DNA from: Myxococcota bacterium
Lineage (GTDB): Bacteria > Myxococcota_A > UBA9042 > PHBI01 > JAWLBL01
Direction of reading: 5' to 3'
Length of the DNA stretch: 64,000 nt
Assembly (NCBI GenBank): GCA_041687695.1
Contig: JAWLBL010000005.1
Span: forward strand, 256,799-320,798
Under the pieces are notes generated by a model. The model was given only the letters and a program-made list of their open reading frames with translations, had not been told where the DNA came from and made no database searches. Below, piece after piece: positions 20,982 to 41,503 of the stretch. Each line of letters starts with the position of its first letter. Positions within the stretch are counted from its first letter, which is position 1. The position numbers and the translations under genes were made by a program.

Positions 20982-21083
20982 GTCCTTTCGGCAGGTTGGG
21001 CCCCCTCGCGCCCGCGCCGTTGCGATGACACGGTCGGCGGGTATGGTGGCGCCCTTCCCACCCGAGCACCCAGTGGAGGCACC

Positions 21084-24433: not shown

Positions 24434-26553
24434 CGCCCGAACTCGCCCTGCCCCGCGGCTTCCGGTTCGCCGGCATCCGCTCCGGCGTCAAGCAGAACAA
24501 GCCGGACACCGCCCTCATCGTCAGCGACGTGCCCTGCGCGGCCGCGGCGAAGCTGACGACCAACCGGGCGCGCGCGTGGGCGGTCGAGCGCACGGCGACG
24601 CTGCTGCCGGCCGACGGCGTGCGGGCGGTCATCGCGGTCAGCGGCAACGCCAACGCGCTGTCGGGCGCCGCCGGGCGCGCCGCGGACGAGGCGATGGCCC
24701 GCGGGGTGGCCGAGGCGCTGGGCGTCGCGCCGAGCGCGGTCATCACCTCGTCGACCGGCGTCATCGGCTCGCCCATGCCGGCGCGGGTGGTGGTCGAGTC
24801 CATCCCGGGGGCGCTCGGGCAGCTCGAGGCCGACCCCTGGGGGGCGGCGCGGGCCATCATGACGACCGACCGGGTGCCCAAGGGCAGCTCGCGCGTGGTC
24901 TTCCTGGGCGAGACGGAGTGCCGGCTGGCCGGCATCGCCAAGGGCGCCGGGATGATCCACCCCAACATGGCGACGATGCTGGCGTACATCGTCACGGACG
25001 TCGGGCTGACGCCGGCGGCGGCGGACCACATCCTGGGGCGGACGGTGGCGCGGACCTTCAACCGCATCAGCGTCGACGGCGACCAGTCGACCAACGACAT
25101 GGTCGTGCTGATGGCCAACGGTCAGGCGGGCGGGGCGCGGCTGGACGTGGGCGACCCGGGGCTCGAGGCGGTCGAGGAGGCGCTGCGGGGCGTGCTGACG
25201 GATCTGTCGCGGGCCATCGCGGCCGACGGCGAGGGGGCGACGCGCCTGCTGACGGTCGAGGTGGTGGGCGCCAGGGACGAGGCCGAGGCGGACGGCGTGG
25301 CGCGGGCCATCTGCCGGTCGAGCCTGGTGAAGTCGGCCATCTTCGGGGCCGACCCCGGGTGGGGCCGCATCATGGCGGCGGCGGGGCAGGCGCTGGCCGA
25401 GCTGGGCTCGGACGCGCACCCCAGCACGTGGAAGCTGCGGCTGCAGGGCGTCGAGGTGTTCCGGCTGGGCGAGCCGGTGCCCTTCGAGAAGCCGGCGCTG
25501 TCGGCGCGCATCGCGGCCGAAGAGGTGGTGGTCCACCTGGATCTCGGGCGCGGGGCCGGGTTCGCGACCTGCTGGGGCTGCGATCTGACGTACGACTACG
25601 TGAAGATCAACGCCGACTACGCGGCGGCGGTGACCGAGACCCAGGCCGGCCAGGTCGGGCTCGACGCGCACCTGGCGACCTTCTCGCCCAAGATCAAGCG
25701 CAGCCTGCTCATCGAGTCCCTGCGCTACATCGAGCGCTTCCGAGGGCGGCGGCTGGTGGTCAAGGTCGGCGGGGATCTGCTCGAGGACCCCGAGACCACC
25801 GACCGCATCGCCGAAGACCTCATCCTGCTGAGGTCGGTCGGCATGCACCCCATCGTCCTGCACGGCGGCTCGCGCGAGATCTCGCGCGCCCTGGCGGCGG
25901 CGGGGCGCGAGAGCCAGTTCGTCGACGGCCACCGCGTCACCACCGCCGAGGACGCGGCCACCGTCGAGAGCGTCCTGCTGGGCAAGGTCAACCGCAAGCT
26001 GGTCGGGCGCTTGAACGCGCTGGGCGGCCGCGCCGTGGGCCTGTCGGGCCGCGACGGCAACTTCCTGCGCGCCCAGCCGCTCGACGCCGCCGACCCGCAG
26101 CGCTTCGGCCACCTGGGCCAGGTCTCCGAGGTCGACGGCCGCCTCATCACCAGCCTGCTCGAGCAGGGCTTCATCCCGGTCATCGCCCCGGTGGGCGTCG
26201 GCCCCAACGACGCGGCCTACAACCTGGACGCCGAGGACGCCGCCGCCGCGCTGGCCGTCTCCTTCGGCGTCTTCAAGCTGGTCTACCTCATCGCCAACGC
26301 GGGCGTGCAGAGCGAGGGCGAGCGCGTCAGCCGCGTCACCCCGCGCCAGGCCCAGCGCCTGATGCGCGAGGGGGCGGTCAAGGGCAAGCTGGTCCACATC
26401 CTCGAGGCGTCGCTGAACGCCGTCCAGGGCGGCGTCCCCCACGTCCACCTGGTCGACGGCCGGGTCGCCCACAACCTGGTCAGCGAGCTCTTCACCGACG
26501 CCGGCGTCGGCACCCTGGTCGAGCGCGGCGACGCCCCCCGCTCGGGCCGCTGA
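24430..26553 (+). CDS. argJ: Ornithine acetyltransferase ArgJ fused to an acetylglutamate-kinase (ArgB-like) domain
   Basis: TTG overlapping the argC stop. ArgJ motifs STGVIG, KGAGMIHPNMATML, DGEGAT, GCDLTYDYVKINADY; then an AAK fold with VVKVGG, LHGG, GLSGRDG, IPVIAP, ELFTDAGVGT. Confidence 0.93.
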   Translation: MTPELALPRGFRFAGIRSGVKQNKPDTALIVSDVPCAAAAKLTTNRARAWAVERTATLLPADGVRAVIAVSGNANALSGAAGRAADEAMARGVAEALGVAPSAVITSSTGVIGSPMPARVVVESIPGALGQLEADPWGAARAIMTTDRVPKGSSRVVFLGETECRLAGIAKGAGMIHPNMATMLAYIVTDVGLTPAAADHILGRTVARTFNRISVDGDQSTNDMVVLMANGQAGGARLDVGDPGLEAVEEALRGVLTDLSRAIAADGEGATRLLTVEVVGARDEAEADGVARAICRSSLVKSAIFGADPGWGRIMAAAGQALAELGSDAHPSTWKLRLQGVEVFRLGEPVPFEKPALSARIAAEEVVVHLDLGRGAGFATCWGCDLTYDYVKINADYAAAVTETQAGQVGLDAHLATFSPKIKRSLLIESLRYIERFRGRRLVVKVGGDLLEDPETTDRIAEDLILLRSVGMHPIVLHGGSREISRALAAAGRESQFVDGHRVTTAEDAATVESVLLGKVNRKLVGRLNALGGRAVGLSGRDGNFLRAQPLDAADPQRFGHLGQVSEVDGRLITSLLEQGFIPVIAPVGVGPNDAAYNLDAEDAAAALAVSFGVFKLVYLIANAGVQSEGERVSRVTPRQAQRLMREGAVKGKLVHILEASLNAVQGGVPHVHLVDGRVAHNLVSELFTDAGVGTLVERGDAPRSGR

Positions 26554-26830: not shown

Positions 26831-27061
26831 TCACGGCTTCCACTCGGACGACCAGTCGATGTGAACGAAGTCGTCCGGATCGCCGACCATGAAGTCGGGG
26901 CGCGTGACCAGGTTGTCCAACTTGGAGCGCGGCCGGTCGGGCACGATGCGCAGGATCTGTCCGTGACGTTCGATCTCGACCGGAACCCCCGTCTCCAGGA
27001 TCTGGTCCAGGATTCGGAAGATGTTGGCCCGGAGCTCGCTGGGTTTGAGCGGTGTGGTCAT
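26831..27061 (-). CDS. Phd/YefM-family type II antitoxin (76 aa), orphan
   Basis: MTTPLKPSELRANIFRILDQILETGVPVEIERHGQILRIVP fits the Phd N-terminal pattern; acidic C-terminal tail; lower GC than flanks. Confidence 0.85.
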   Translation of the reverse strand: MTTPLKPSELRANIFRILDQILETGVPVEIERHGQILRIVPDRPRSKLDNLVTRPDFMVGDPDDFVHIDWSSEWKP

Positions 27062-27179
27062 CGGAGCCTCGCCCGCATGTACGTCCCCCCACCGTAGCGA
27101 CGTACGCCGCGGACGACCAGCGCCGATGATGACCGAACCATGACGGACGGACGGCGCCGAGCTGAGGCATGATGGTGGC

Positions 27180-28013
27180 GTGAACGTCCGCGCCGTCAGC
27201 CTGCTCGCCGCCCTGCTCGCCGCCTGCGCCGCGCCGGTCAAGCCGGGGCCCGCGGCGCCGCAGCCGGTGCGTGTGCCCGATCTCGTGCGGGTCCGGGTGC
27301 TGCGTGCCACCGACGCCCCGGCCGTCGGCGCCTTCCGCGTGCGCCCGACGGTCGCGGTGGCCGCCGCGCCCTCCCTGGACCTCGACGCGCGCGCCTCCAT
27401 CGTCGCCTTCACCCGCGCCCGCGACGCCCTCGCCCAGGGCCGCCTGCCCGACCCCGACGACGTCCGCGTCGAGTCCTTCCTGTGCGCCCTGGGCCGGCCG
27501 CCCGCCCGCACCGACGCGCCGCTCCTGGTCTCCTCGCCGAGCCGCCGCGGCTACGACCTCCTGCTGCTCGCGCCCGACGAGGGCCGCCTCCGGCACACCT
27601 TCGACCCCGAGCAGGTCGAGCGCTACCGCGTGCTCGGCTACGACGGCGCCGCCTCACCGGCCCACGGCGACCAGGCGGCGGCCGACTGCAGCCCCTGGGT
27701 GCTGGTCGAGGTGAAGCGCACCGTCTTCACCCGCGCCGAAGCGCCCGCCCTGCCCCTGCCCCAGGCCCCCGCCCCCGTCCGCCTGGCCGTCGCCGCCGCC
27801 GCCTTCGCCGAGAAGCTCCGCGGCGCCTACTGGGCCCGCGCGTCCACCTACGACGGGCTGCTGGCCCAATTGGACGGCCTGTCCGGCCACAAGGCCGACA
27901 CGCTGCGCACCATGATGCGACGAGCCGCCGCCCTCGACCGCCGCCCCGACCCGTGGGAGCCGGTCGCCCCGATGGCGACCCTGTCCTTCGACGAGCTGCC
28001 GGTGCTCCCTTGA
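27180..28013 (+). CDS. Lipoprotein, miniature YfbK-like (vWF_A and DUF3520-like motifs, no VWA core)
   Basis: Lipobox LAAC; GRLPDPDDVRVESFL, FDPEQVERYRVLGYD, RLAVAAAAFAEKLRG. Confidence 0.7.
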   Translation: MNVRAVSLLAALLAACAAPVKPGPAAPQPVRVPDLVRVRVLRATDAPAVGAFRVRPTVAVAAAPSLDLDARASIVAFTRARDALAQGRLPDPDDVRVESFLCALGRPPARTDAPLLVSSPSRRGYDLLLLAPDEGRLRHTFDPEQVERYRVLGYDGAASPAHGDQAAADCSPWVLVEVKRTVFTRAEAPALPLPQAPAPVRLAVAAAAFAEKLRGAYWARASTYDGLLAQLDGLSGHKADTLRTMMRRAAALDRRPDPWEPVAPMATLSFDELPVLP

Positions 28014-29803
28014 GGTCGCGCGCCCTCCTCGCCGCGGGCGTCCTCGCCTTCGCCGCGCTCACCATGGGCCTGTGGGCCGTCCACCGCGTCTTCGCCGACA
28101 CGCGCGCCGACGCCCACGCCTCCGTCGCCGCGCGCGAGGCCGCCCTGGCCGAGATCGCCGCGCGCACGCTTCAGATGCAGGTCGCGCTTCGCCTCCGCGT
28201 CGCCCAGATCCGCGCCGAGGCCGCCCTCGAGGAGCCCCTCGACGCGCCGACCGGCCTCGCCCTCATCCGCGACGGCGCCCTCGCCTACCCACGCGTCCCC
28301 GCCCGCCCGGCCTACACCCCGTCCGCCGCCGACCTCGCCCGCGCCCTGGCCACCGACGCGCCCCGGCCGAGCGACGCCCCCGACGACCCGTGGGCCCAGC
28401 TCGCCGCCACCGTCCGCGACGCCCTCACCGCCCCCGACGGCGCCGCCCTCTCGGACGCCGTCCGCCGCCACCTCGCCGCGCGCGCCCTGCACGTCCTCGC
28501 CCCCGAGCGCGAGCTGACGGCCACCCTCGTCCTGCTCGAGCACCTCGCCCGCCGCCCCGATCTCGACCGGCGCCTCGCCCGCGCCCTGGTCCGCGACGGC
28601 CTCGAGGACGACCACGGCGCCCGCGTCGCCAGCCTGCAGCAGGCCCTGCTCGCCCAACGCGCCCGCCTCAGCGCCGAAGACTTCGACTTTCTAGCCGCCC
28701 GCGTCCACGCCATCTCCCGCGCCCTCGACCTGCCCGCCGACGACTTCGTCGCCGCCGCCGGCCCGCTCGACGTCCCGCCTCCGATAGACCGGCCCGCGAG
28801 CCCCACCCTCGACGCCGCCGGGTGGCTGGTCGGCCCCGTCGACGCGGACCTGGTCGCCGTCCGCGCCACCGCCGCGGACCTCGCCGCCCAGGTCACCGAC
28901 GAGCTCGTCGAGCGTGGCGTCCTGGGTCCGGACGACCTGGTCCTGGTCCCCGACGACGTCGGCCCGCTCTCCAGCTCACCGCTCACCGTTTCCTCGCCGA
29001 GCTTCGCCGCCGCCCGCGCCGCCGCCGACGCCCGCTACCGCCTCTCCCTCGCCTTCCTCGCCGCCTTCGCCGCCCTCGCCCTCGCCGCCGCCGCCGCCGT
29101 CGCCTGGGCCGTCCGCCGCCACCAGCGCGCCCTGACCGTCCGCGCCGACCTCCTCGCCGCCGCCGCCCACGAGCTGCGCACCCCCCTCGCCTCCATCCGC
29201 GCCCTCGCCGAGACCCTGACCCTCCGCCCTTCGGCCGCCCCCGACTACCCCGCCCGCATCCTCCGCGAGGCCGACGCCCTCATCGCCACCACCGAGAACG
29301 TCCTGGCCCACGGCCGCCTCGACGCCGCCCGCCTCACCCCCACCCGCGCCCCCCTGCGCCTCGGCCCCCTGCTCGAGGACGTCGCCGACGAGGTCGCCGC
29401 CCACGCCGCCGCCGCCCTCACCGTCACCCACTACGGCCTCGACGGCCTGACCGCCCACGCCGACCGCCCCCTGGTCCGCCTGGTCCTGCGCAACCTCCTC
29501 GCCAACGCCGCCGCCCACGCCGGCCGCGACGCGGTCCACGTCCAGGTCACCGGCGCGCGCGCCCCCGGCCGGGTCCTGCTCACCGTCCGCGACGACGGCC
29601 ACGGCGTCCCCGACGACGCCCGCGCCCACCTCTTCACCCCCTTCACCCGCGGCGCCGCCCCCTCGCGCGGCGCTGGCGTCGGCCTGGCCCTGTCGCGCAA
29701 GATCGCCCGCGCCCACGGCGGCGACCTGGCCCTGACCGCCACCGGCCCCCACGGCTCCACCTTCACCCTGACGCTCCCCTCCCTGCCGGCGCCGCCGCCA
29801 TGA
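28010..29803 (+). CDS. Membrane sensor histidine kinase
   Basis: TTG overlapping the upstream TGA; two TM segments; H-box AHELRTPLASI, N-box NLLANA, DDGHG, GAGVGL. Confidence 0.92.
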   Translation: MRSRALLAAGVLAFAALTMGLWAVHRVFADTRADAHASVAAREAALAEIAARTLQMQVALRLRVAQIRAEAALEEPLDAPTGLALIRDGALAYPRVPARPAYTPSAADLARALATDAPRPSDAPDDPWAQLAATVRDALTAPDGAALSDAVRRHLAARALHVLAPERELTATLVLLEHLARRPDLDRRLARALVRDGLEDDHGARVASLQQALLAQRARLSAEDFDFLAARVHAISRALDLPADDFVAAAGPLDVPPPIDRPASPTLDAAGWLVGPVDADLVAVRATAADLAAQVTDELVERGVLGPDDLVLVPDDVGPLSSSPLTVSSPSFAAARAAADARYRLSLAFLAAFAALALAAAAAVAWAVRRHQRALTVRADLLAAAAHELRTPLASIRALAETLTLRPSAAPDYPARILREADALIATTENVLAHGRLDAARLTPTRAPLRLGPLLEDVADEVAAHAAAALTVTHYGLDGLTAHADRPLVRLVLRNLLANAAAHAGRDAVHVQVTGARAPGRVLLTVRDDGHGVPDDARAHLFTPFTRGAAPSRGAGVGLALSRKIARAHGGDLALTATGPHGSTFTLTLPSLPAPPP

Positions 29804-30531
29804 CCGACGCCCCGTCCATCTCGCCCTCCATTCTGATCGTCGAGGACGACCCCACCCTGCGCCTCGTGCTCGCGGACAACCTGCGCGCCGAGGGCTACCG
29901 GGTCACCACCGCCGAGACCGGCCGCGCCGCCCGCGCCGCCTTCGCCGCCCCCCACGATCTGATCGTCCTCGACCTGATGCTGCCCGACGCCGACGGCTAC
30001 GCGCTCTGCCGCGAGCTGCGCGCCGCCGAGCCCCCGGGCGCGCGGCCCGCGCGCGTCCTGATGCTGACCGCCCGCGCCCTCGAGGACGATCTCCTCCGCG
30101 GCTTCGACGCCGGCGCCGACGACTACCTCGCCAAGCCCTACCGCCTGCGCGAGCTGCTCGCCCGCGTCCGCGCCCTGCTCCGCCGCGGCGCCCCCTCCCC
30201 GCTCGCCGGCCCCGCCACGCTCCGCTTCGCCGGCTTCACCCTCGATCTCGACGCCCGCACGCTGCTCGACCCGGCCGGCGCCCCCATCGCGCTCACCCGC
30301 ACCGAGCACGATCTGCTGGCCTGCTTCCTGCGCCACGAGGGCCGCGCCCTGTCCCGCGATCGCCTGCTCGACGAGGTCTGGGGCGCCGACGTCGTGGTCG
30401 ATCCGCGCACCGTCGACAACTTCGTCTCGTCGCTCAAGCGCAAGCTCGGCTGGACCGACGACGCCCCCTTCCGCTTCCAGGCCGTGCGCGGCGTCGGCTA
30501 CCGCCTCGAGGTCGATTCCACGCCGGATTGA
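29800..30531 (+). CDS. OmpR/PhoB-family response regulator
   Basis: ILIVEDD, LDLMLPDADG, GADDYLAKP, winged helix RTVDNFVSSLKRKL and VRGVGYR; ATGA overlap with the kinase. Confidence 0.95.
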   Translation: MTDAPSISPSILIVEDDPTLRLVLADNLRAEGYRVTTAETGRAARAAFAAPHDLIVLDLMLPDADGYALCRELRAAEPPGARPARVLMLTARALEDDLLRGFDAGADDYLAKPYRLRELLARVRALLRRGAPSPLAGPATLRFAGFTLDLDARTLLDPAGAPIALTRTEHDLLACFLRHEGRALSRDRLLDEVWGADVVVDPRTVDNFVSSLKRKLGWTDDAPFRFQAVRGVGYRLEVDSTPD

Positions 30532-30951: not shown

Positions 30952-32574
30952 GTGGACAGGCTACTCCAGGAGCGACTCGCCCGGCTCGTGCTCGACAAGC
31001 TGCTCGACAGCGGAGAGCTCCGCAGCGTGGCGAGCCAGCGCGCCCTCGCCCTGCGGATGTTCTATCTGCCGCCGAGCATCCGCCTGGACGTCCCCCCCGA
31101 CGACGACTACCTGCCCCTGCTCGACCCCAACAAGCAGGGCAAGGCCATCGCCGGCCTGCGCGACGCCATCCTGCGCATCGTGCAGCACGAGGAGGGCGAT
31201 CACTGGGTGGTCGTCGACCCCGATCTGCAGCTCGACGTCCACCTCCGCGAGCACTCGCGCGTCCCGCGCATCCGCCCCATCTACGAGCCCGACGTCGAGG
31301 ACGACCGCCCGCAGGGTAGCCGCCTGGGCGAGCCGCGGCTGCGCCTGTCGTGGGGCACCCGCAGCGCGGTGCTGCGCGAGCGCCACGGCCTGCTCAAGGT
31401 GGACCTGGGCCCGCGCCGTCCTGGCCTGGTCCTCATCGAGGGCGGCGCCTCCGACGAGGAGGTCGCCTGGCTGTACGCCACCGGCAAGATCCAGGTCATC
31501 GGCGACGACACCAAGCGCGCCCGCCGCTACCCGGCCCGCACGCGCATCCCCGTCACCCACGACATGACCTTCATCGTGCGCGCGCCCTTCGGCGCCATCT
31601 GGCAGCGCAAGGTCCGCATGCAGCTCGAGGTGCTGGGCCTGACCCGCCTCGGCCGCGCCACCATCGCCTTCACCAACCCCACCGGGCAGACGGTCTCGTG
31701 GGACCGCAACCACCAGCCCCACATGCAGCTGGGCGGCGACTTCGTCCTGCACGCCCGCGAGCGCGATCTGGTCGAGATCGAGAACGTCGAGGAGTCGCCC
31801 GCCTCGCTCATCTGGTTCGACGGCAAGCCCCTGACCATCCCGGGCGGCTCGCGGGTGGCCGTCCAGGGCAGCCACCTCAAGGCCCTGGTCACCACCGGCG
31901 GCGGCGCCTGGGCGGCCACGCTCCCCAGCGCCGGCTCGGCCCCGCCCCCGCGCGTCATCCTGCTCGACGGCGAGATGAGCGCCGAGCGCCACGAGGTCCA
32001 GCGCCGCCGCAGCGAGCCGTCCCTGTTCGGCTTCGTCAGCGAGGCGGCCACCATCTTCCAGGACGCCCTCATCCTGGCCCACGTCCAGGGCGACCGCGCC
32101 CCCATCATCGTCAAGAACCCGGCGCACGCCGGCCCCCTGGCCGAGGTCGCCCTCGACGACTGCGCCGGCGCCAAGGTGCGCCTGCTCCGCGACTCGCACG
32201 GCAAGCCCATCGAGGACGCCCCCTGGCGCCACGTCCAGGACGTCCTCGAGCTCTATCCGTCCTCGGCCCGCCTCGAGCTGGTCGGCGCCCCCCAGGTCAC
32301 CTTCGAAGTGCCGCGGCACATCGGCCGGCTGACCATGGACCCCTCCGACCAGTTCACCGTCGACGGCTGGCGCATCCGCATCACCGCCGACGGCCTCAGC
32401 CTCACGGGCGCCGGCAACGGCCCGGTCGACATCGACGGCGCCGCCTACACCGGCCCGAGCCGCCTCGTCTACCAGGACGGCTACCGCATCCGCGCCGGCG
32501 ACGGCGTCTTCCGCATCCTGCGCGGCCACACGCCCTCCTCGCTGAAGGCCTCGGCCAACAGCCTCCCCGGGTGA
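30952..32574 (+). CDS. Hypothetical protein: FhaA-like N-terminal domain (DUF3662-like) plus beta-rich FHA-like domains
   Basis: GAGG RBS and GTG start; N-terminal MFYLPPSIRLDVPPDD resembles the FhaA N-domain; C-terminal GPVDIDG...LVYQDGYRIRAGDGVFRIL resembles an FHA end. Confidence 0.55.
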   Translation: MDRLLQERLARLVLDKLLDSGELRSVASQRALALRMFYLPPSIRLDVPPDDDYLPLLDPNKQGKAIAGLRDAILRIVQHEEGDHWVVVDPDLQLDVHLREHSRVPRIRPIYEPDVEDDRPQGSRLGEPRLRLSWGTRSAVLRERHGLLKVDLGPRRPGLVLIEGGASDEEVAWLYATGKIQVIGDDTKRARRYPARTRIPVTHDMTFIVRAPFGAIWQRKVRMQLEVLGLTRLGRATIAFTNPTGQTVSWDRNHQPHMQLGGDFVLHARERDLVEIENVEESPASLIWFDGKPLTIPGGSRVAVQGSHLKALVTTGGGAWAATLPSAGSAPPPRVILLDGEMSAERHEVQRRRSEPSLFGFVSEAATIFQDALILAHVQGDRAPIIVKNPAHAGPLAEVALDDCAGAKVRLLRDSHGKPIEDAPWRHVQDVLELYPSSARLELVGAPQVTFEVPRHIGRLTMDPSDQFTVDGWRIRITADGLSLTGAGNGPVDIDGAAYTGPSRLVYQDGYRIRAGDGVFRILRGHTPSSLKASANSLPG

Positions 32575-32592: not shown

Positions 32593-35500
32593 ATGCTCGA
32601 GAACGTCCCCACCCCCACCGGCCTCACGGCCCACCTGCTGTTCATGGCGATCTACATCGCCACGGCGGCGGCGGGCCTGACCGGCGCGCTGCTCTCGCTG
32701 GTGCGGCGCGAGACCGCGGGCAACGCGGTCCGGGTCTGCGCCATCCTGACCGCCGTCGGCGCCTTCGCGGCCGTCCTGGTCGGCGCCACGGTGGTGCCCC
32801 GCGTCCCCGCCAGCGACTTCGGCTGGGACGCCCAGCTCGTCACGGTCGGCGCCGCCCTGGCCCTGGCCATCAGCAACGTCGTCCTGGCCATCACGGTCGC
32901 CGAGCCCCGCACCGCCGCCCTGGCGACCCTCGCCGGCGCCCTCACCGGCAGCGGCCTGCTGGTCCACCTGCTCCTGTACTCCGCCGCCCCCAGCCTGTCG
33001 GCCGCCATGAACTGGGAGCTCAAGCGCCTGAGCGTCTACGCGGGCTTCGCCGGCCTCGAGGCCCTGCTCTTCGCCCTGCTCGGCGCCACCGTCAGCCTGC
33101 GTCCGCTGGTCGTCTCGCGGACCCTGCACGCGGTCGCCTTCGTCGCGGGCGGGGTCGCCGTCGTCCTGGCGATGAGCGTGGCCGGCGCCTCGACCCTGTC
33201 GCAGCTGGCGGTCGTCGCCTTCATCTTCGTCCCGGCCTTCTTCTGGTTCCTGTGGCTCATGCTGCGCGCCCGCCCGCCGGTGGTCCCGCGCGCCGTGCCC
33301 GGCGCCGACCGCCGCACGCTCGACCGCCTGGCCCACCGCATCCTGTCGGGCCGCCTGGCCATGCGCGCCCGCCTCGCCCGCTTCGCCGGCTCGCTCCGTC
33401 GCCTGCCCGAGCGCCGCTCGACCCTCCTGCTCGCCAGCCTGATGCCCCTGGGCCTCGCCGTCATGGCGCTCTTCTTCGGCTCGGGCGACACCGCCCGCGA
33501 GGCCGCCCGCGTCAACATCGGCGGCGTCGCCTTCACCCCGGCCCTGCTCGTCCCCTTCGCCTTCGCGCCCGCCCTGGGCCTCATCCTCGGCAGCCCCAAC
33601 CTGCGCGCCCGCGGCCTGTGGGGCCTGGGGCTGACCTTCATGCTCTTGGGCCTGCTCGCCGCGCAGAAGGAGATCGGCTACAGCGGCGTGGTCGTCGCGG
33701 TCGCCGCCGCCGCCTTCCTGGCCGCCCGCGGCACCCTCCTGCACCTGGTCATCGGCGGCGCCTTCGGCCTGCTGGCCGTCGCCATCGCCTTCGAGCTGCA
33801 GCCCGTCCTGCCGTGGATCCCGTTCACCGTCCGCGAGCGCATCCTCCTGTGGCTCGGCGCGGCCAGCTTCGTCCGCCGCGGCGGCCACCTGCTCATGGCC
33901 GACCGCGTCACCTACGACGTCGGCGGCTTCTGGGGCATCGGCGTCGACACCGAGGCGCACCTCGATCTGCACAACATGGTCAACAGCCTCGACACCGACT
34001 TCCCGCTGGCGGTGGTCGGCCTGTTCGGCGGCATGCCGTGGCTGGTGTCGTTCATCGTCCTGTTCGTCGCGCTGGCCCTGCTCCTGTTCGACATCGCGCG
34101 CCGCGACAGCCGCCGCAAGAGCTTCTCGACCACGCGCTGGCGCCTGCCGACCCTCATCGGCCTCGCCACCGTCCCCATCGCCTCCACCGCCATCAACCTG
34201 TCGGGCGGCACGACCCAGCTCACGCCCTTCACCGGCGTCCCCGCGGCCTTCCTCAGCTACTCCAGCTTCTTCCTCGGCGGCACCCTGGTCGTCGTCATGC
34301 TCTTCTTCGTCGCGGGCAACGACGGCGCCGTGGTGCGCCTGCTCCGCCGCGGCGCCGAGATCGCGCGGCCCAAGCCCAAGCTGGACCCCGCCCTGCTCGC
34401 TCAGGTGCAGCGCACCAAGGCCCCCGAGCCCTGGTGGGAGAACCTGTCGTGGGCGGGCCTGCGCCTGTTCGGCCGCCGCCAGCTCGAGCGCGTCCGCACC
34501 GCCTCGGTCGACGCCGGCGCCTTCCTGCTGATGGGGGGCCTCGCCGCGGCCTCCTACTTCTGGATCGGCGCCATCTACGACCGCTACGCCGACCGGCCCG
34601 CGGTCCACGCCCACCCCGCCCTGACCAGCCACGTCCGGGTGCGCCCGCTGGTCCCGGGCACCTGGGAGGTGGTCGAGGACACCATCCCGGGCTGGCGCGG
34701 CATCCTGTCCGAGCGGCGTCAGTACCGCCTGGACAACCTGGAGATGCACTTCAAGGGGGGCACGCTCGAGGTGACGGGCGCCTGCTTCCCGTGGCTGCAG
34801 AGCTCGACGCGCGGCGTCTCCCTGGGCTTCGACGGGCTGATGAAGACGCACCTGGCCGGCTTCGACGGCGCCTCGCGCAGCGTCGCCTCGCGGCTGGGCG
34901 CGCGCATCGAGCAGGGCAACGACCTGGTGCTGCCGCTGGCGCCCGTCTGGCTGCGCCACGCGACCGTCACGCGCGTGTCGCCCGGGTGGTTCCGCGTCGA
35001 GTCGGCGACCCCCGGCGCCCGCTACGTCGTCCTCAACGCCCGGGGCAAGCCGGTCAGCGACCCTATGGACGGCCCGATGATCCTGCCCGCCGGGACCGGC
35101 TTCGCGCTGGCCGACGACCGGCGGCTGCGCTTCCGCATCGACGACGTCGAGGGCGACGGCCCCGCCTCGGGCGAGACCTGCCTGCGCAGCTTCGACAAGC
35201 CGATGTTCACCTGGCCGCTCGACCCGTGGCGCCACACGCTGGTCGGCGGCCCGCGCCTGCTCCGCCGGGCGCCCATCGACAACAGCATCGACTTCGAGTT
35301 CGCCGAGGACTTGAAGCGCGCCGCCGAGCACCACCTGGTCGGCGTCCGGGCCGACGGGACGCTGTGGGTGGCGCCGTGGGACCGCGCCACGCGCGAGGCC
35401 TGGGACCCCATCACCCAGCGGGTCTTCGCGCGCGCCTTCCGCGTCAAGCGCTTCAAGACCGACGACGGCGGCGTCCGCGAGGAGCTGCACTGGATCCGCC

Positions 35501-37215
35501 GCTTCTACTTCGACGGCGGCTCCAAGGTGCGCGCCGACGCCGAGCTCGACGCCTTCGCCTCGAGCTGGACCGGCCACCTCGCCGGCCTCGCCGACCCGTT
35601 CCGCTTCAGCCTGCCGCTGCCGACCACCGCGGCGGGCGAGCTCATCCGCGAGGCGGGGACGGTGATGGACGCGAAGAACCGGCCGCTCGCCTACTACGTG
35701 CCCGAGGAGCAGCGCTTCGAGGTGACGGTGCCGCAGACGGGCACCATCTTAGGGTGGGGCTTCACCGAGCGCGGCATCTTCGGCGGCACGCTGCGCGTCT
35801 TCCGGCGCCTGCTGATGGGGCGGCTGGTCCGGCCGGTCGGCATCGAGGCCGAGCTGACCGAGCGCATCCTCGACCGCGAGGCGACCTTCATCGGCGCCGA
35901 CGTGATGCTGACCCTGGACGCCGAGCTGCAGGCCGGCCTGCAGAAGATCGTCGACGAGGAGTGCGCCATCCTGCAGCGGGGCGGCCGCGGCGACTACAAG
36001 GCCCGCGGGCGCGCGCTCATCCTGGGGCCACACAACGAGATCGTGGCGATGGCCCAGTGCCCGGGCGTCGACATCCGGACCCTCGAGCAGGCCGAGGAGC
36101 TGGTCCGGATGCAGAAGGAGCAGCCCTACGAGGCGCCCGCGCTCGACGTCCTGCACCGCACCGTCACCGTGGGCTCGACCGCCAAGGTCGGCATGGTCGT
36201 CGCCGCGGCGCGCGACCCCAAGAAGTACTTCAAGCCCTACGACAAAAAGGACATCTGCATCCGGGCCGACGACGACCCGGGCAACAGCTCCCGCGGGTGC
36301 TTCCGCGAGCCGGGCCTGCTCACGAGCGTCAAGGGCGAGAAGATCGCGCCCGTGAAGAACTTCGCCGGCGCCGGTTACGGCGGCGTCACGACCATCCGCC
36401 AGCTCCTCGTCAAGTCGATCAACACGGCCTCGGCCTACCTCGCCGGCCGCCTGGGCCTCGCGGAGTTCCAGGACTTCTACGACCTCGTCGAGATGACCCG
36501 GCCCTACGACCTGGTCCCGGACGTCATCGGAAAAAACCCCAAAATTGCCATCGAGCTCGACCGTTGGCACGGTGATCCACTGACGGCCTGGCGCGCGCGC
36601 CTCGGCGAGCTGCCGCCCGGCCCCGACTATTGGCGCATGAGCTACGACGTCCGCCTCGCCCTCAGCGGCTTTTCGGACTTCAGCATGCTCCACGTCGGCG
36701 TGGCCACCGGCATCATCGCCCGCGACGGCATCCACTACCGTCCGTACATGGTCCGCGGCATCCGCGACCTGATGGACGGCCAGGTGCTGAAGGTCGACGT
36801 CCCCAGCTCGTTCCGCGTCATCGCGTCGCCCATCGCCGGCTACCTCAAGAGCGCGATGGTCGACACCGTCGACCACGGCACGGCCGGCGGCATGCGCGGC
36901 ATGCTCCCGCCCGAGGTCTGGAAGGAGACCGGCGGGAAGACGGGCACGGGCGAGACGGTTCGCCTCATCAGAGGGGGCACCTCGTCGAGCGGCAACGTCA
37001 AGTCGACCCAAGACCACAAGTTCTTTACCGGATTCTGGCCCGCGTCCTCAGCCACGCCCTACGTCGTCGTCACCGGCTTCGAGTACGCGAGCCACATCGA
37101 CACCCGCGTCGCGGTCCGCTGCGCCGCGCGCGCCATCGACATGCTCGCGAAGGTCGTGAGCGGACCGACCACCACCACGCAAAGCACCCACTCAGCCTCG
37201 GAAGCCACGCCATGA
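32593..37215 (+). CDS. SEDS (RodA/FtsW) glycosyltransferase - beta-rich linker - class B PBP transpeptidase fusion, 1540 aa
   Basis: Multi-TM N-half with QKEIG, LDTDFPLAVVGLFGG, PFTGVPAAFLSY; C-half DVMLTLDAELQ, SxxK (GSTAK, 36175), SxN (SIN, 36415), KTGT (36937), HKFFTGFWP. Confidence 0.88.
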   Translation: MLENVPTPTGLTAHLLFMAIYIATAAAGLTGALLSLVRRETAGNAVRVCAILTAVGAFAAVLVGATVVPRVPASDFGWDAQLVTVGAALALAISNVVLAITVAEPRTAALATLAGALTGSGLLVHLLLYSAAPSLSAAMNWELKRLSVYAGFAGLEALLFALLGATVSLRPLVVSRTLHAVAFVAGGVAVVLAMSVAGASTLSQLAVVAFIFVPAFFWFLWLMLRARPPVVPRAVPGADRRTLDRLAHRILSGRLAMRARLARFAGSLRRLPERRSTLLLASLMPLGLAVMALFFGSGDTAREAARVNIGGVAFTPALLVPFAFAPALGLILGSPNLRARGLWGLGLTFMLLGLLAAQKEIGYSGVVVAVAAAAFLAARGTLLHLVIGGAFGLLAVAIAFELQPVLPWIPFTVRERILLWLGAASFVRRGGHLLMADRVTYDVGGFWGIGVDTEAHLDLHNMVNSLDTDFPLAVVGLFGGMPWLVSFIVLFVALALLLFDIARRDSRRKSFSTTRWRLPTLIGLATVPIASTAINLSGGTTQLTPFTGVPAAFLSYSSFFLGGTLVVVMLFFVAGNDGAVVRLLRRGAEIARPKPKLDPALLAQVQRTKAPEPWWENLSWAGLRLFGRRQLERVRTASVDAGAFLLMGGLAAASYFWIGAIYDRYADRPAVHAHPALTSHVRVRPLVPGTWEVVEDTIPGWRGILSERRQYRLDNLEMHFKGGTLEVTGACFPWLQSSTRGVSLGFDGLMKTHLAGFDGASRSVASRLGARIEQGNDLVLPLAPVWLRHATVTRVSPGWFRVESATPGARYVVLNARGKPVSDPMDGPMILPAGTGFALADDRRLRFRIDDVEGDGPASGETCLRSFDKPMFTWPLDPWRHTLVGGPRLLRRAPIDNSIDFEFAEDLKRAAEHHLVGVRADGTLWVAPWDRATREAWDPITQRVFARAFRVKRFKTDDGGVREELHWIRRFYFDGGSKVRADAELDAFASSWTGHLAGLADPFRFSLPLPTTAAGELIREAGTVMDAKNRPLAYYVPEEQRFEVTVPQTGTILGWGFTERGIFGGTLRVFRRLLMGRLVRPVGIEAELTERILDREATFIGADVMLTLDAELQAGLQKIVDEECAILQRGGRGDYKARGRALILGPHNEIVAMAQCPGVDIRTLEQAEELVRMQKEQPYEAPALDVLHRTVTVGSTAKVGMVVAAARDPKKYFKPYDKKDICIRADDDPGNSSRGCFREPGLLTSVKGEKIAPVKNFAGAGYGGVTTIRQLLVKSINTASAYLAGRLGLAEFQDFYDLVEMTRPYDLVPDVIGKNPKIAIELDRWHGDPLTAWRARLGELPPGPDYWRMSYDVRLALSGFSDFSMLHVGVATGIIARDGIHYRPYMVRGIRDLMDGQVLKVDVPSSFRVIASPIAGYLKSAMVDTVDHGTAGGMRGMLPPEVWKETGGKTGTGETVRLIRGGTSSSGNVKSTQDHKFFTGFWPASSATPYVVVTGFEYASHIDTRVAVRCAARAIDMLAKVVSGPTTTTQSTHSASEATP

Positions 37216-38588
37216 ACCCCTCTGCCCCTCGCGTCCCTCGCGGCCTCCTCGCCGCGATCCTCGGCGTCCTCACGCTCGCGCTGGCCGTCCCCGCCCAGGC
37301 GCGTCCGCCGCGCGAGCGCCGGCCCGCCCAGCCCACCGAAGCCGAGCGGGTGCTCGAAGGCGGCCCCGCGGCCCAGCAGGGCGCCCAGGCCGCCGGGGCC
37401 CCAGCGGCCCGACAGTGGCACGCCTCGTGCTCGAGCCCCTACCGCCGCCCCATGTCGATGGTGCTCGGCTTCGACGAGTTCCGCGACTACCGCCCGGCGC
37501 AGCTCGCCGAGCCCGAGGCGGTGCGGCAGCTCCTCGGCACCGCCTGCGCCGGCGACCGCGTGGTGCTCGCCGCCGTCGGCATGGACGTGCGGCTGCTGAC
37601 CGAGCCGACCACGCTCAAACAGCCGGCCGACATCGACGCGCTGGTCCAGGCCGTGGCGAGCCGCCGCGAGCCGACCCTGTACACGCGCATCAACGACAAC
37701 CTGACCAAGCTGGCCAGCGAGGAGTGGTCGCGCGCCGAGAACAAGGACAAGCAGGATCTGCTGCGGGTGCTCATCTTCTTCACGCGCCACGTCGAGAGCC
37801 GCAAGCCCTCGAAGTCCTACGTGAACGACTTCTCGTGGGCGTCCCCGCCCTTCTGGCTCGAGGGCATGGCCATGGTGGGCGTCATGCGCCCGCTGGTGGC
37901 CGACAAGAAGATCGAGGCCTGGGATCTCTCGGTGGTGACCACGCCCGGCTTCGTCGACCGCAAGCAGCTGTCGACGGGGCTCAAGCCGGATCTGACGGCG
38001 TTCATCGACGGCGCCCGTATGAAGGAGCGGCCCAAGGAGGTCGCCCGGATGGAGGTCAAGCAGACGGCGCAGGGCCCGGTCATCATCGGCGCGCCCAAGC
38101 TGCCCGAGCTGTGGCCGGTGCCCGACGGCGCCATCCTGTGGGACGACGCCTGGACGCCCTGGGCCATCGCCGCGGGCCTCGGCCTCGCGCTGGTGCTGGT
38201 GCTCATCTGGGCCCTGGCGCGCTCGGCCCCGCCGCGCAACCTCGGCGTCGCCAGCTCCGACGCCAAGGAGCTGACCCTCATCATCCACGACCGCCTGCAC
38301 GGCACCGTCGTCGGCCAGGAGAAGGCCCGCCTCGAGGCCGCCCTGCGCGTCGGCCCGTCCGTGTCGAGCGACGTCATCATCCCCGGCCCGTACGCCCTCG
38401 AGATCATCCCGGGCTCCAACGGCTCGGCGCCGCGCCTGCGCTCGACCAACACCCTGCCGGTCGAGGTGCAGCGCGCCTCCGGCGGGCGCCTGCTGCACGC
38501 GACCGACGCCATCCCGGTCCCCATCCGGTCGGGCGACCGCGTCCACCTCGGCGGCGGCCACGAGCTCGAGGTCCGCTACACGACCTGA
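37212..38588 (+). CDS. Membrane protein: signal peptide, vWA-like alpha/beta ectodomain, TM, cytoplasmic FHA-like domain
   Basis: ATGA overlap; signal peptide ending AQA; GDRVVLAAVG and LRVLIFFT (vWA-like strands, no DxSxS); TM WAIAAGLGLALVLVLIW; C-terminal LRVGPSVSSDVII...IRSGDRVHLGGGHELEV. Confidence 0.6.
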   Translation: MNPSAPRVPRGLLAAILGVLTLALAVPAQARPPRERRPAQPTEAERVLEGGPAAQQGAQAAGAPAARQWHASCSSPYRRPMSMVLGFDEFRDYRPAQLAEPEAVRQLLGTACAGDRVVLAAVGMDVRLLTEPTTLKQPADIDALVQAVASRREPTLYTRINDNLTKLASEEWSRAENKDKQDLLRVLIFFTRHVESRKPSKSYVNDFSWASPPFWLEGMAMVGVMRPLVADKKIEAWDLSVVTTPGFVDRKQLSTGLKPDLTAFIDGARMKERPKEVARMEVKQTAQGPVIIGAPKLPELWPVPDGAILWDDAWTPWAIAAGLGLALVLVLIWALARSAPPRNLGVASSDAKELTLIIHDRLHGTVVGQEKARLEAALRVGPSVSSDVIIPGPYALEIIPGSNGSAPRLRSTNTLPVEVQRASGGRLLHATDAIPVPIRSGDRVHLGGGHELEVRYTT

Positions 38589-38647: not shown

Positions 38648-39772
38648 ATGCGACAACCCTTCATCATCGTCGGCGCCGGAACCGATGTGTCCACCCGGGT
38701 CATCCTCCCGGCCTGCCAGCGCATCCGCGAGATGCACGGCAGCTGGCCCAACCACGTCTACGCCCTCATCGCGGACGGCGACGAGCAGACGCGCACGCGC
38801 TACACGCAGGCCAAGCTCCCGGCCGACCGCGCCGCCTTCGTGCCGCTGTCGCTGGTGCAGGTCCGCGAGGCCCTGGCCTGGCGGCGCGACGAGTTCCGCG
38901 ACGCGTGGCGCGACGACTGGCAGCAGCTGCTGGTCCAGGGCCCCGACAACGGCGCCTGCATGGTGCCGGCCATCGGACGCATGATGATGAAGGCGGCGCG
39001 CCCCGCCATCATCCAGCACCTGCGCGCCTTCGAGCGGCGCCTCGACGCCCAGGGCGGCAAGGCGCCCGAGATCTACGTGGTCTGGTCCCCGGTCAGCGGC
39101 ACCAGCCGCGGCAGCGTCGTCGACCTGCCGCGGTATCTGCGGGCCATCTTCCCCGAGTCGCCCATCCACGCGGTCGTCGTGCACCCGGTGGGCGTCGAGG
39201 AGCTGGACCCCGCGGTGGCGCGCATCTTCCAGGCGAACTTCATCGAGGCGCTGCGGCTCATCGACCACTACTCGAACACCGTCAGCTACGAGACCTGGGT
39301 CGACGACCAGGCCGGCTGGCAGCGCTTCGAGGGGCGCCTGGTCGACACGGTCTTCTCGTTCGACGAGCAGTACGGCAACACGCGCTTTCGCCACCTGGCG
39401 GAGACCCAGCGCACGCTGCCCGGGCGGCTCGAGGCGTTGACCTCGCGGGTGGCCGACTTCCTGGCGGGCGTCGCCGGCGGCGACCCGCTGTACGAGCGCA
39501 TGCGCGCGCGCTTCGCGGACGCCGAGATGCACCGGGCCGACCGGCGGCTGGCCGGCCATCGGACCTACCTCTTCGGCGTGCACGAGGCCCGGGCGAGCCT
39601 GGACATGAAGGCCTTCAAGCAGGCGCTCATCGAGCGCGTCATGGAGCGCATCGGCGGCCGCCTCGCGGAGGCGAAGCGGCCCGACGCGACCGACGCGCAC
39701 GCTCAGAGCGTGACCCTCTTTGGCGACACCCTCGGCCGCGCGGAGCTGGCCGGGGACATGACACAGGAATAG
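38648..39772 (+). CDS. Divergent tubulin/FtsZ-like (Tubulin_2-type) protein
   Basis: FIIVGAG (T1 loop), NGACMVPAIGR, IYVVWSPVSGTSRGSVVDL (degenerate GGGTGSG), ANFIEALRLIDHY. Confidence 0.75.
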   Translation: MRQPFIIVGAGTDVSTRVILPACQRIREMHGSWPNHVYALIADGDEQTRTRYTQAKLPADRAAFVPLSLVQVREALAWRRDEFRDAWRDDWQQLLVQGPDNGACMVPAIGRMMMKAARPAIIQHLRAFERRLDAQGGKAPEIYVVWSPVSGTSRGSVVDLPRYLRAIFPESPIHAVVVHPVGVEELDPAVARIFQANFIEALRLIDHYSNTVSYETWVDDQAGWQRFEGRLVDTVFSFDEQYGNTRFRHLAETQRTLPGRLEALTSRVADFLAGVAGGDPLYERMRARFADAEMHRADRRLAGHRTYLFGVHEARASLDMKAFKQALIERVMERIGGRLAEAKRPDATDAHAQSVTLFGDTLGRAELAGDMTQE

Positions 39773-39775
39773 GCG

Positions 39776-41503
39776 ATGGCTGAGCATACGCTTGGTGTGG
39801 GCCTGAAGTTCCGGGACGGCGAGGAGGCGCGCAGGTGGCTCCTCGACCACCTGGAGCGGCTCGAGGAGAGCGTCGCGGACGCGGCCGACATCCACCAGAC
39901 GTCGGCCACGCTGACCGGCGACGCGCTGACGCAGCTCGAGTCCGATCCGCTGGCGTTCCGCAAGAGCGCGGTCATCCACTTCCGCGATCTGCTGAGCGAG
40001 GTGACCGACCGGGCCGCCTCGCGCGCCGAGCGCGAAGGGCTGAACGTCAAGGCGCTCGAGCGGCTCGTGCTGTCGACCCTGGGCACGCGCCCGTCGCACA
40101 CGCGCGAGATCCTCGAGGGGCTGGCCGCCGGCTTCCGCGAGCGCATCGACCGCCTGTCGGTCGAGGGCAACGCGGCGCACGAGGGCGGCCAGGGCGAGCT
40201 GGACGACGCGCTGGGCGGCCTCGACCGGGCGCTCGAGCAGGCGGTGCGCCGCTGGGAGAGCGCGCCGCTGGGCATCTGGAACCGCTACCGGCGGCGCCGG
40301 AAGTTGAAGCGCCAGGGCCTCGACCACGTCGCGGACCTGCCCGAGCTGGCGCTGGGCCTGGCGAGCGCGGCGCGCGAGCAGCGGCCCTCGTTCGAGCAGG
40401 CCTGGGGCCACGTGGTGCGGGCCGGCATCCACCTGGGGCTCGCGCGCAGCTACGCGGCGACCCTGGACTGGCTGGTCACCGTGCTGCACGGCGTCGACGA
40501 TCTGGCGCGGCAGGCCGGCGAGCTGGCCCGCGAGGCCGCGCAGCGCCGCCGGCGCCTCAAGGGCGACTGGACGGGCGCGCGCGTGCCCGACCGGCACAAC
40601 CTGCTCAGCCTCGAGCTGCTCGACGAGGTCATCGACCAGCTCGAGCTGAACGCGGCCGCCTTCCTGGACCGCAGCGAGGTCAAGGCCGACCAGCTGGGCG
40701 CCGCGGGGCGGCAGGTCCTCGAGTCCGATCTCCGCCGCTGGATCGAGGCGCGCCTCGGCGCCCTGCCCGACGCGGGGCTGCGCGACGTGCTCGCCGGGTT
40801 CCGACCCGACGCCGACGTCTCGGGGCCGCTGGTCGAGCTGTTGGCGGCCGGGCAGCCGCTGATGCGGTTCAACGACGATCTGCACCGGCTGTGGCCCGAG
40901 GGGCACCCCGCCCAGTACTACGTCATCGCCGGCGCGACCGACGACAGCCTTCACGACGCCCTGGCCGACGCCTGCGTGGCCGTCGGGCTGCCCTCGCCGC
41001 TGTCCGAGGTCGACGCGGCCGAGGCCGAGGCGACCGGCCACCACCTCGAGCTGCGGGTCCTGCAGCTGGTCGGCGGCCTGGCGTGGCTGAGCGAGGCCGA
41101 GCGCCTGCTGCCGATGATGGTCACCCACGCGACCGTCATGAGCGAGGCCGACGCCCAGCTCGAGACCCGCGAGGGGCTGCGCGCGGCCCTGCGCGACACC
41201 CTCGAGTCCGAGGCCATCGGCGACGTGCTCCCCGACAAGCTGCGGCGCTCGCTGCGCGAGCTCGACGTCCTGCGCACGCAGGCGCTCGAGGCGCCGCGCG
41301 GCTCCGTGCTGCCCGCGCCGTCGGCGTCGGGAGCCGGGGGAAACGGATCGCGTGGGTCGAAGGAGCGGCCGTCGGAGGACTCCCCCGACGAACCCTCGAC
41401 CCACGAGATGGCGAGCGCGCCGGGCCGCTCGGCCGAGCGCCTGACGGCGACGGCGAAGGGCGCTGGCGAGGGCCCGATCCCCTCCGCCGACATCCCCAAC
41501 TGA
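39776..41503 (+). CDS. Helical/coiled-coil protein, in frame with the tubulin-like gene
   Basis: L/E/R/A-rich heptad-like sequence with a disordered C-tail; separated from the upstream ORF only by TAG GCG. Confidence 0.75.
   Translation: MAEHTLGVGLKFRDGEEARRWLLDHLERLEESVADAADIHQTSATLTGDALTQLESDPLAFRKSAVIHFRDLLSEVTDRAASRAEREGLNVKALERLVLSTLGTRPSHTREILEGLAAGFRERIDRLSVEGNAAHEGGQGELDDALGGLDRALEQAVRRWESAPLGIWNRYRRRRKLKRQGLDHVADLPELALGLASAAREQRPSFEQAWGHVVRAGIHLGLARSYAATLDWLVTVLHGVDDLARQAGELAREAAQRRRRLKGDWTGARVPDRHNLLSLELLDEVIDQLELNAAAFLDRSEVKADQLGAAGRQVLESDLRRWIEARLGALPDAGLRDVLAGFRPDADVSGPLVELLAAGQPLMRFNDDLHRLWPEGHPAQYYVIAGATDDSLHDALADACVAVGLPSPLSEVDAAEAEATGHHLELRVLQLVGGLAWLSEAERLLPMMVTHATVMSEADAQLETREGLRAALRDTLESEAIGDVLPDKLRRSLRELDVLRTQALEAPRGSVLPAPSASGAGGNGSRGSKERPSEDSPDEPSTHEMASAPGRSAERLTATAKGAGEGPIPSADIPN

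Follow-up and report, generated by a model that had tools for sequence, protein, structure and literature searches.

A single-chain SEDS–class B penicillin-binding protein fusion within a vWA/FtsZl1 gene cassette of a Myxococcota bacterium

The gene studied here lies in a 64,000-nucleotide stretch of contig JAWLBL010000005.1 (positions 256,799 to 320,798, forward strand; GenBank assembly GCA_041687695.1, a Myxococcota bacterium), hereafter the window. Its product, P0001, is a natural fusion of a SEDS domain with a class B penicillin-binding protein (PBP), both in one reading frame, as judged from predicted folds. The gene is the second of a co-directional five-gene cassette that also encodes a vWA protein and a short tubulin-like GTPase of the FtsZl1 type. 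An initial annotation of this DNA had proposed a single-chain peptidoglycan synthase. Overall it is partly supported: the architecture and the retained catalytic residues are correct, and the novelty of the fusion itself is weak. The vWA/FtsZl1 cassette, which that annotation did not mention, is the more unusual part. The features of the fusion gene are as follows (aa, amino acids; TM, transmembrane).

32593..37215, + strand: SEDS–class B PBP fusion (P0001); a single 1540-codon frame with no internal stops
32623..32895 (aa 11-101), + strand: three extra N-terminal TM helices, N-terminus predicted outside; AlphaFold helices and Lys/Arg loop counts, 1 of 91 columns invariant
32905..33093 (aa 105-167), + strand: likely SEDS TM1-TM2; structural alignments, with G121, W141, E142 and R145 invariant (20 of 20)
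33106..33399 (aa 172-269), + strand: two further TM helices and a basic cytoplasmic helix, likely inserted between SEDS TM2 and TM3; AlphaFold, 0 of 100 columns invariant
33415..34332 (aa 275-580), + strand: SEDS core TM3-TM10; D469 (codon at 33997) aligns with E. coli RodA D262
34519..34575 (aa 643-661), + strand: class B PBP-type membrane anchor helix, preceded by a basic cytoplasmic linker (aa 578-642)
34600..35631 (aa 670-1013), + strand: insert of ~345 aa, predicted periplasmic; outside every PBP structure match, with C731 and C863 invariant
34909..35118 (aa 773-842), + strand: degenerate FHA-like domain; profile match, with the His of S-x-x-H in 19 of 20 members and the Ser in 0 of 20, and without G-R and N-G-T
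35632..37167 (aa 1014-1525), + strand: compact PbpA-type pedestal and D,D-transpeptidase; S1195 at 36175, S1275 at 36415, K1449 at 36937

The fusion protein and its family

Third-position GC in the fusion frame is 0.98-1.0 across 32593-36492 and 0.85-0.94 in the final 720 bases. A protein search returned ten further full-length relatives (33-54% identity, 82-100% query coverage), and the family now has 20 members, P0001 and 19 full-length relatives of the same architecture, 1502-1594 aa long and from separate assemblies. In addition, open fusion frames of 1537-1549 aa are present in four other genomes of the order. The initial annotation had raised the concern that a mis-assembly might join two genes, and long chance frames do occur in high-GC DNA. 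However, mis-assembly is excluded because the 19 full-length relatives come from separate assemblies, and we give next to no weight to an artificial join, whether by mis-assembly or by chance read-through.

The family is small. Counting full-strength matches only, it occurs in seven of 18 genomes of the order (three of the seven carriers belong to one genus, and two are just 67% complete), and a sample of 401 genomes from the phylum contained it in eight. The carriers encountered are metagenome-assembled genomes (MAGs), and most named records of the close relatives belong to Myxococcota, Myxococcales or Deltaproteobacteria MAGs. An early genome scan that used the transpeptidase part alone as query recovered no relative.

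Transpeptidase is the sole Pfam match in P0001 (E 2e-8), and the same scan gave no match to a Transgly (GT51) domain. In an AlphaFold model of aa 640-1540 (mean predicted local distance difference test score, pLDDT, 71.5), class B PBP structures match over aa 1017-1525, the best being 4mnr, a PbpA-type protein from Eggerthella (Z 34.4, root-mean-square deviation [rmsd] 3.0, 392 residues aligned). All three transpeptidase motifs are retained, as had been claimed: S1195-x-x-K1198 and S1275-x-N1277 in all 20 members, and K1449-T-G in 19 of 20. With the modelled transpeptidase fold and its motifs, a single TM anchor followed by a pedestal, and no GT51 domain, this half is a class B PBP.

The SEDS half lies below the detection level of Pfam. 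P0001 falls under the PF01098 cut-off, which only one of 11 members passes (one more member reached 28.5 bits in a genome search), and neither single-sequence nor 10-row profile searches of solved structures recovered it. It surfaced only through fold search and profile–profile comparison. A model of aa 1-700 (mean pLDDT 67, predicted template modelling score 0.73, ten-sequence alignment) matches FtsW/RodA chains at Z 22.9, 21.0 and 20.4, with WaaL next at Z 10.9; the best match is FtsW 8bh1 (Z 22.9, rmsd 3.5, 329 residues aligned; next unrelated row Z 9.4). SEDS chains occupy ranks 1-7 of a Foldseek search with the model (E 4.4e-6), a 16-member family profile matches a profile of canonical SEDS proteins headed by E. 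coli RodA (probability 97.4, E 1.1e-11), and P0001 alone matches TIGR02210 RodA (E 2.9e-6). The N-terminal half does therefore align to SEDS proteins, and the claim that SEDS and class B PBP share one chain is borne out. Across the 20 members, the SEDS core is the most conserved part of the protein (55% mean identity, 51 of 310 columns invariant), ahead of the transpeptidase (46% identity, 36 of 415 columns invariant). Because it is better conserved than the transpeptidase, this is not the picture of a decaying domain.

An extra N-terminal block of about seven TM helices had also been described. Seven helices do precede the SEDS core in the AlphaFold model, but two of them fill SEDS TM1-TM2, so that five are extra. 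Helices 105-130 and 135-167 are most likely TM1-2, given that structural alignments to FtsW/RodA begin at model residue 100-106, that G121, W141, E142 and R145 are invariant, and that there is no invariant column in aa 171-270. With TM1-2 so placed, three extra helices come before and two are inserted after. One profile alignment differs, placing TM1-2 at aa 172-226, and five N-terminal helices are most likely extra under either placement of the modelled helices. Aligned alone, the N-terminal helices matched no SEDS group. The charge of the loops is consistent with an N-terminus on the outer side of the membrane, a linker in the cytoplasm (578-642) and the anchor helix at 643-661.

The SEDS active site and the periplasmic insert

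Residues below are mapped using RodA numbering from the E. coli record, with counts over the 20 family members. The counterparts of K97 (R302), R101 (R306), P112 (P316), D159 (E360), R210 (R416) and D262 (D469) are kept in all 20, and Q358, G548, P550 and S555 are likewise invariant. R145 is invariant where RodA R48 (at the start of TM2) is expected, with the profile alignment five residues off there. In RodA, R101, R210, D159 and D262 are required for activity, changes at R48, R101, R210, W102, Q111 and D159 lower it, and E114A and K117N cause a modest loss in vitro (PMC10449877).

The catalytic Asp lies within TDF (468-470), as initially annotated, and is present in 20 of 20 members. The QPSE and SYGG motifs have drifted, again as described, to FTPA (at 314) and SYSS (at 555), the change in QPSE being fixed in all 20; the remaining motifs named in that description also stand where they were placed (LRHATVTRV at 787, VLNARG at 813, LPAGTGFAL at 831). 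The membrane half has the modelled SEDS fold, the catalytic Asp and the donor-site Arg, and it departs from the R-W and Q-P-x-E-x-x-K motifs.

The insert spans the region between an invariant H674-P675, after the anchor, and the pedestal. Its two cysteines, C731 and C863 (both 20 of 20), are a possible disulfide pair, which would be compatible with an oxidising compartment. The initial annotation had called this region about 350 aa of beta-rich, partly FHA-like sequence. The FHA-like part holds for aa 773-842, which match a profile built from 29 FHA domains encoded in the same genome (probability 96, E 2.4e-9 over 59 columns; best of 40 column shuffles E 0.018); when 13 windows along the protein were compared with that profile, the sole scoring window overlapped the same residues. 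However, the domain is degenerate: the phosphothreonine-binding residues are gone from its sequence, and it sits after the anchor helix, in what is predicted to be the periplasm. The first beta region of the insert does not match FHA significantly (E 0.011), and the insert profile found nothing better than E 0.51 among solved structures. A search for a free-standing insert among shorter proteins gave none, one partial sequence only.

The five-gene cassette and its known counterparts

Besides the fusion, the cassette comprises the following genes.

30952..32574, + strand: orfA, 540 aa, beta-rich, no signal peptide or TM helix seen, weak FHA-like C-terminus; immediately precedes the fusion in all 11 related loci whose DNA extends upstream of it
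37212..38588, + strand: orfC, 458 aa, with a hydrophobic leader, a vWA domain, one TM helix and a C-terminal FHA-like domain; its start overlaps the fusion stop by 4 bases
38648..39772, + strand: short FtsZl1 (Tubulin_2) GTPase-like protein, 374 aa; Pfam Tubulin_2 E 7.3e-8, 32.5 bits against a cut-off of 27
39776..41503, + strand: orfE, 575 aa, helical-looking; comes after the tubulin-like gene in each copy for which DNA further downstream is available

The order is orfA, fusion, orfC, GTPase and orfE, with gaps of 18, -4, 59 and 3 bases. The vWA assignment of orfC (probability 89, E 2.4e-6) compares with 0.028 for a reversed control, and its C-terminus matches the FHA profile at E 1.6e-4 (probability 50). 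The C-terminus of orfA does so at E 9e-4 (probability 23). The N-terminus of orfA does not match FhaA_N significantly (E 0.26), there is no Pfam match, and its Atlas matches are below 0.9; FhaA-like ancestry of orfA is a lead only, from sequence. The GTPase matches a full-length FtsZl1 profile (probability 86) and ends at 374 aa, with the fused coiled-coil and helical C-terminal domain of FtsZl1 absent. A split-off tail was not recognised in orfE, which does not match the C-terminal part of ordinary FtsZl1 (E 0.49).

All five genes occur in this order in six related loci (L049, L050, L051, L052, L136 and L137; L135 repeats L050), and L062 has the same order plus one inserted gene. In L044-L047 the tubulin-like gene is outside the fetched stretch; it is kept elsewhere in those genomes, followed by orfE in five of five relocated copies. 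Of the 18 genomes of the order, the same seven have the fusion, orfA, orfC and the GTPase, including those in which the cassette is split, and the remaining 11 have none of the four. Elsewhere in the genome, contigs C1 and C13 carry canonical RodA and FtsW near class B PBP genes, and for this reason the cassette is likely accessory. No polysaccharide-synthesis gene was recognised within the cassette, and by Pfam no kinase or phosphatase. A search for a sigma-70-like promoter found none (0.2 expected, and uninformative at this GC), and six terminator-like matches all lie inside genes.

Several genes near the cassette may be noted, the first two sets of which are not conserved beside it in related loci. 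Just upstream (27180-30531, + strand) are a YfbK/vWF_A-like remnant lipoprotein, a histidine kinase and an OmpR-type regulator, and 2.4 kb downstream is a Ser/Thr kinase with a receiver domain (43889-45466, + strand). An ordinary class A PBP (Transgly plus Transpeptidase; 47659-50283, + strand) lies 10 kb downstream of the fusion.

The premise that a SEDS–class B PBP fusion is itself unusual is weak. A 2025 survey catalogues 117 InterPro proteins as natural SEDS-pedestal-transpeptidase fusions, termed bifunctional class B PBPs (PMC12516126), an ftsW-pbpB(P1) fusion is on record (PMC8136486), and the ESM Atlas holds many clusters of SEDS–class B PBP fusions. Like P0001, the catalogued proteins combine a SEDS domain with an anchor helix, a pedestal and a transpeptidase in a single polypeptide, and they too coexist with canonical pairs. 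However, they average 950 aa and are Pfam-detectable (PMC12516126), whereas members of the P0001 family have 1500-1600 aa, a SEDS domain that mostly escapes Pfam, a 345-aa insert of their own with an FHA-like domain, a replaced Q-P-x-E-x-x-K, and vWA and FtsZl1 neighbours. No Myxococcota entry is among 73 of the 117 rows of the published Table S11 (those from A to Rhodococcus p., 700-1122 aa; PMC12516126). Incidentally, PDB entries 4r3j, 4ra7 and 4jbf, Atopobium 'peptidoglycan glycosyltransferase' chains numbered ~523-950, are perhaps the PBP halves of a natural SEDS fusion.

Closer counterparts exist within the phylum. A scan of 301 genomes detected FhaA_N in 15, and among 11 FhaA loci seven carry a one-frame SEDS-transpeptidase fusion (L210, L211, L214, L215, L217, L218 and L219), one a long SEDS frame ended by the contig and one a separate adjacent pair, and two have neither. 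These fhaA-linked fusions constitute a second, less divergent SEDS-transpeptidase fusion family in the phylum. They are the best whole-length profile match of the P0001 family (probability 99.7, E 1e-26) and share with it the loss of W102 (seven of seven). Together with the actinobacterial fhaA-rodA-pbpA cluster (L053-L055), they also share the PbpA-type compact pedestal and FHA-containing neighbours. They differ in keeping Q111, E114, K117, D159 and H260 in seven of seven, where the P0001 family replaces Q111, E114 and K117. The search for an FHA domain within these fusions was negative, as was that for vWA or FtsZl1 genes in the 11 stretches scanned around fhaA. In trees made by quick searches (the SEDS tree has P0010 and P0013 as partial rows and leaves out the inserted helices), the P0001 family forms one clade on a stem of about 2.0 changes per column, with no resolved sister. 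Sequence comparison makes descent of the P0001 family from the fhaA-linked fusions likely.

FtsZl1/vWA operons were described in 2010, with FtsZl1 itself uncharacterised there (PMC2875224). As in the cassette, an FtsZl1 GTPase domain stands beside a membrane-anchored vWA protein, and ordinary division genes are present (PMC2875224). Ordinary FtsZl1 has ~1050-1280 aa, in contrast to the 374 aa of the cassette version with its separate orfE. FtsW, RodA, penicillin and transpeptidase are absent as terms from the supplements of that paper (PMC2875224). Tubulin_2 is present in 99 of 401 phylum genomes, and local profiles found SEDS or PBP/transpeptidase genes within ~10 kb of ordinary FtsZl1 at 0 of 20 loci. 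The canonical RodA-PBP2 and FtsW-FtsI systems share both folds, the catalytic Asp, the R101 and R210 counterparts, and SxxK, SxN and KTG; they differ in having two chains, invariant W102, Q111, E114 and K117, and guidance by MreB or FtsZ. A search of the openly accessible literature on SEDS/PBP with tubulin-vWA-FHA neighbourhoods and on fusions gave no account of the P0001 family.

Elsewhere in the window, one 707-aa frame (24430-26553, + strand) fuses ArgJ to an amino-acid kinase (ArgB-like) domain, and the gene ahead of it we take, from its motifs, to be argC. Two adjacent, mutually matching cysteine-rich acidic repeat proteins lie at about 19700-23180 (+ strand), and the 698-aa one of the two has a lipoprotein-like leader and no Pfam match. 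A small Phd/YefM-like antitoxin (26831-27097, - strand) scores E 6.5e-5, under the cut-off.

Proposed function and alternatives

The reading that we favor, at roughly even chances, is that P0001 is an accessory one-chain peptidoglycan synthase, working much as a RodA-PBP2 pair would, whose local placement or activation would depend on the vWA protein and the FtsZl1 GTPase. Its parts differ in strength: an active transpeptidase is highly probable, the cassette products quite probably work as one machine, and lipid II polymerase activity is somewhat favored. The SEDS part would take lipid II at the undecaprenyl-pyrophosphate donor site (R416), and D469 would activate the acceptor so that glycan is made; because the Q-P-x-E-x-x-K motif is replaced, polymerization would probably be slow or occur only when activated. 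The transpeptidase would then join this glycan to the existing wall by cross-links. More tentatively, the vWA domain of orfC may dock on the periplasmic insert, the cytoplasmic FHA-like tail of orfC may link to orfA, the GTPase and orfE, and a GTP-dependent cytoplasmic assembly may set the site of wall addition.

Several observations weigh against this proposal. W102 is replaced by V/I307, Q111 by T/S315, E114 by L318 and K117 by P321, each in 20 of 20 members, and the counterparts of RodA P257, E258 and H260 are mostly lost (H260 is kept in four of 20). RodA requires Q111 and W102, both of them invariant there, altering E114 or K117 in SpoVE has severe effects in vivo (PMC10449877), and changes at FtsW Q147 are dominant-negative (PMC8765783). 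The signature loop GGTGSG of the GTPase reads GTSRGS in six of six copies, and the GTPase is not in the stretch after the fusion in four of seven genomes (G005, G006, G007 and G009). It should also be noted that co-occurrence in the seven carriers does not amount to seven independent events, because the carriers are kin (three of seven are of one genus).

The four replaced residues, which matter in RodA, SpoVE and FtsW alike (PMC10449877, PMC8765783), could instead mean that the SEDS half is a conserved pseudo-enzyme that binds lipid II or undecaprenyl phosphate or acts as a scaffold, with the transpeptidase alone at work on the glycan of another synthase. The very long stem branch of the family (2.08 changes per column) fits this as well. 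However, neither the catalytic Asp nor the arginines that bind pyrophosphate vary among members, and conservation of the SEDS core exceeds that of the transpeptidase; we consider a pseudo-enzyme unlikely. The SEDS half might also be an active GT-C transferase whose acceptor site has been rebuilt. It would move an undecaprenyl-pyrophosphate-linked glycan onto another acceptor in a single, ligase-like step before the transpeptidase ties the product to the wall, and would account for the replacement of acceptor-side and processivity residues of the loop and center by a new invariant set. It would also fit the retention of the Asp and of the donor-site arginine common with WaaL (R210 = R416), WaaL being the next fold match. 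Against this, the fold is far nearer FtsW/RodA than WaaL, lipid II is the substrate suggested by a fused transpeptidase whose motifs are intact, and no gene for polysaccharide synthesis was recognised in the cassette; we regard the ligase-like activity as very improbable.

Another explanation concerns the neighborhood rather than the enzyme. The locus could be a drifted form of an ordinary fhaA-PP2C-kinase-RodA/PbpA module under phospho-signaling control, with the vWA and tubulin-like genes as passengers, as the full-length profile match to the fhaA-linked fusions, the gene order fhaA-PP2C-kinase-fusion in L219, and the FHA-like domains in three cassette genes would suggest. However, kinase and phosphatase are not inside the five-gene cassette, the FHA-like domains are without phosphothreonine residues, and the partners are in all seven carriers, even after relocation, and in none of the 11 non-carriers. 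A drifted signaling module is therefore rather improbable in our judgment. Extending the proposal of a locally controlled accessory synthase, it is conceivable, if doubtful, that the cassette adds to the FtsZ divisome and the MreB elongasome a third wall machine guided by a cytoskeleton, in which FtsZl1 steers, via a vWA-TM-FHA adaptor, a one-chain SEDS-PBP that has a rebuilt acceptor site.

A handful of residues, supposedly invariant, underlie the mechanism of SEDS enzymes, which are drug targets. A natural family in which four such residues are swapped under strong conservation offers a test of which are truly needed, and its five-gene unit is suited to expression and assay. Because the SEDS half is missed by Pfam-based surveys, such families are undercounted. 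For FtsZl1/vWA systems, whose only proposed role had been 'membrane remodelling', the cassette provides a link to a wall synthase. If it is indeed a third wall machine, it would provide a concrete enzymatic output for the FtsZl1 family, and would mean that the Q-P-x-E-x-x-K motif is dispensable for SEDS catalysis.

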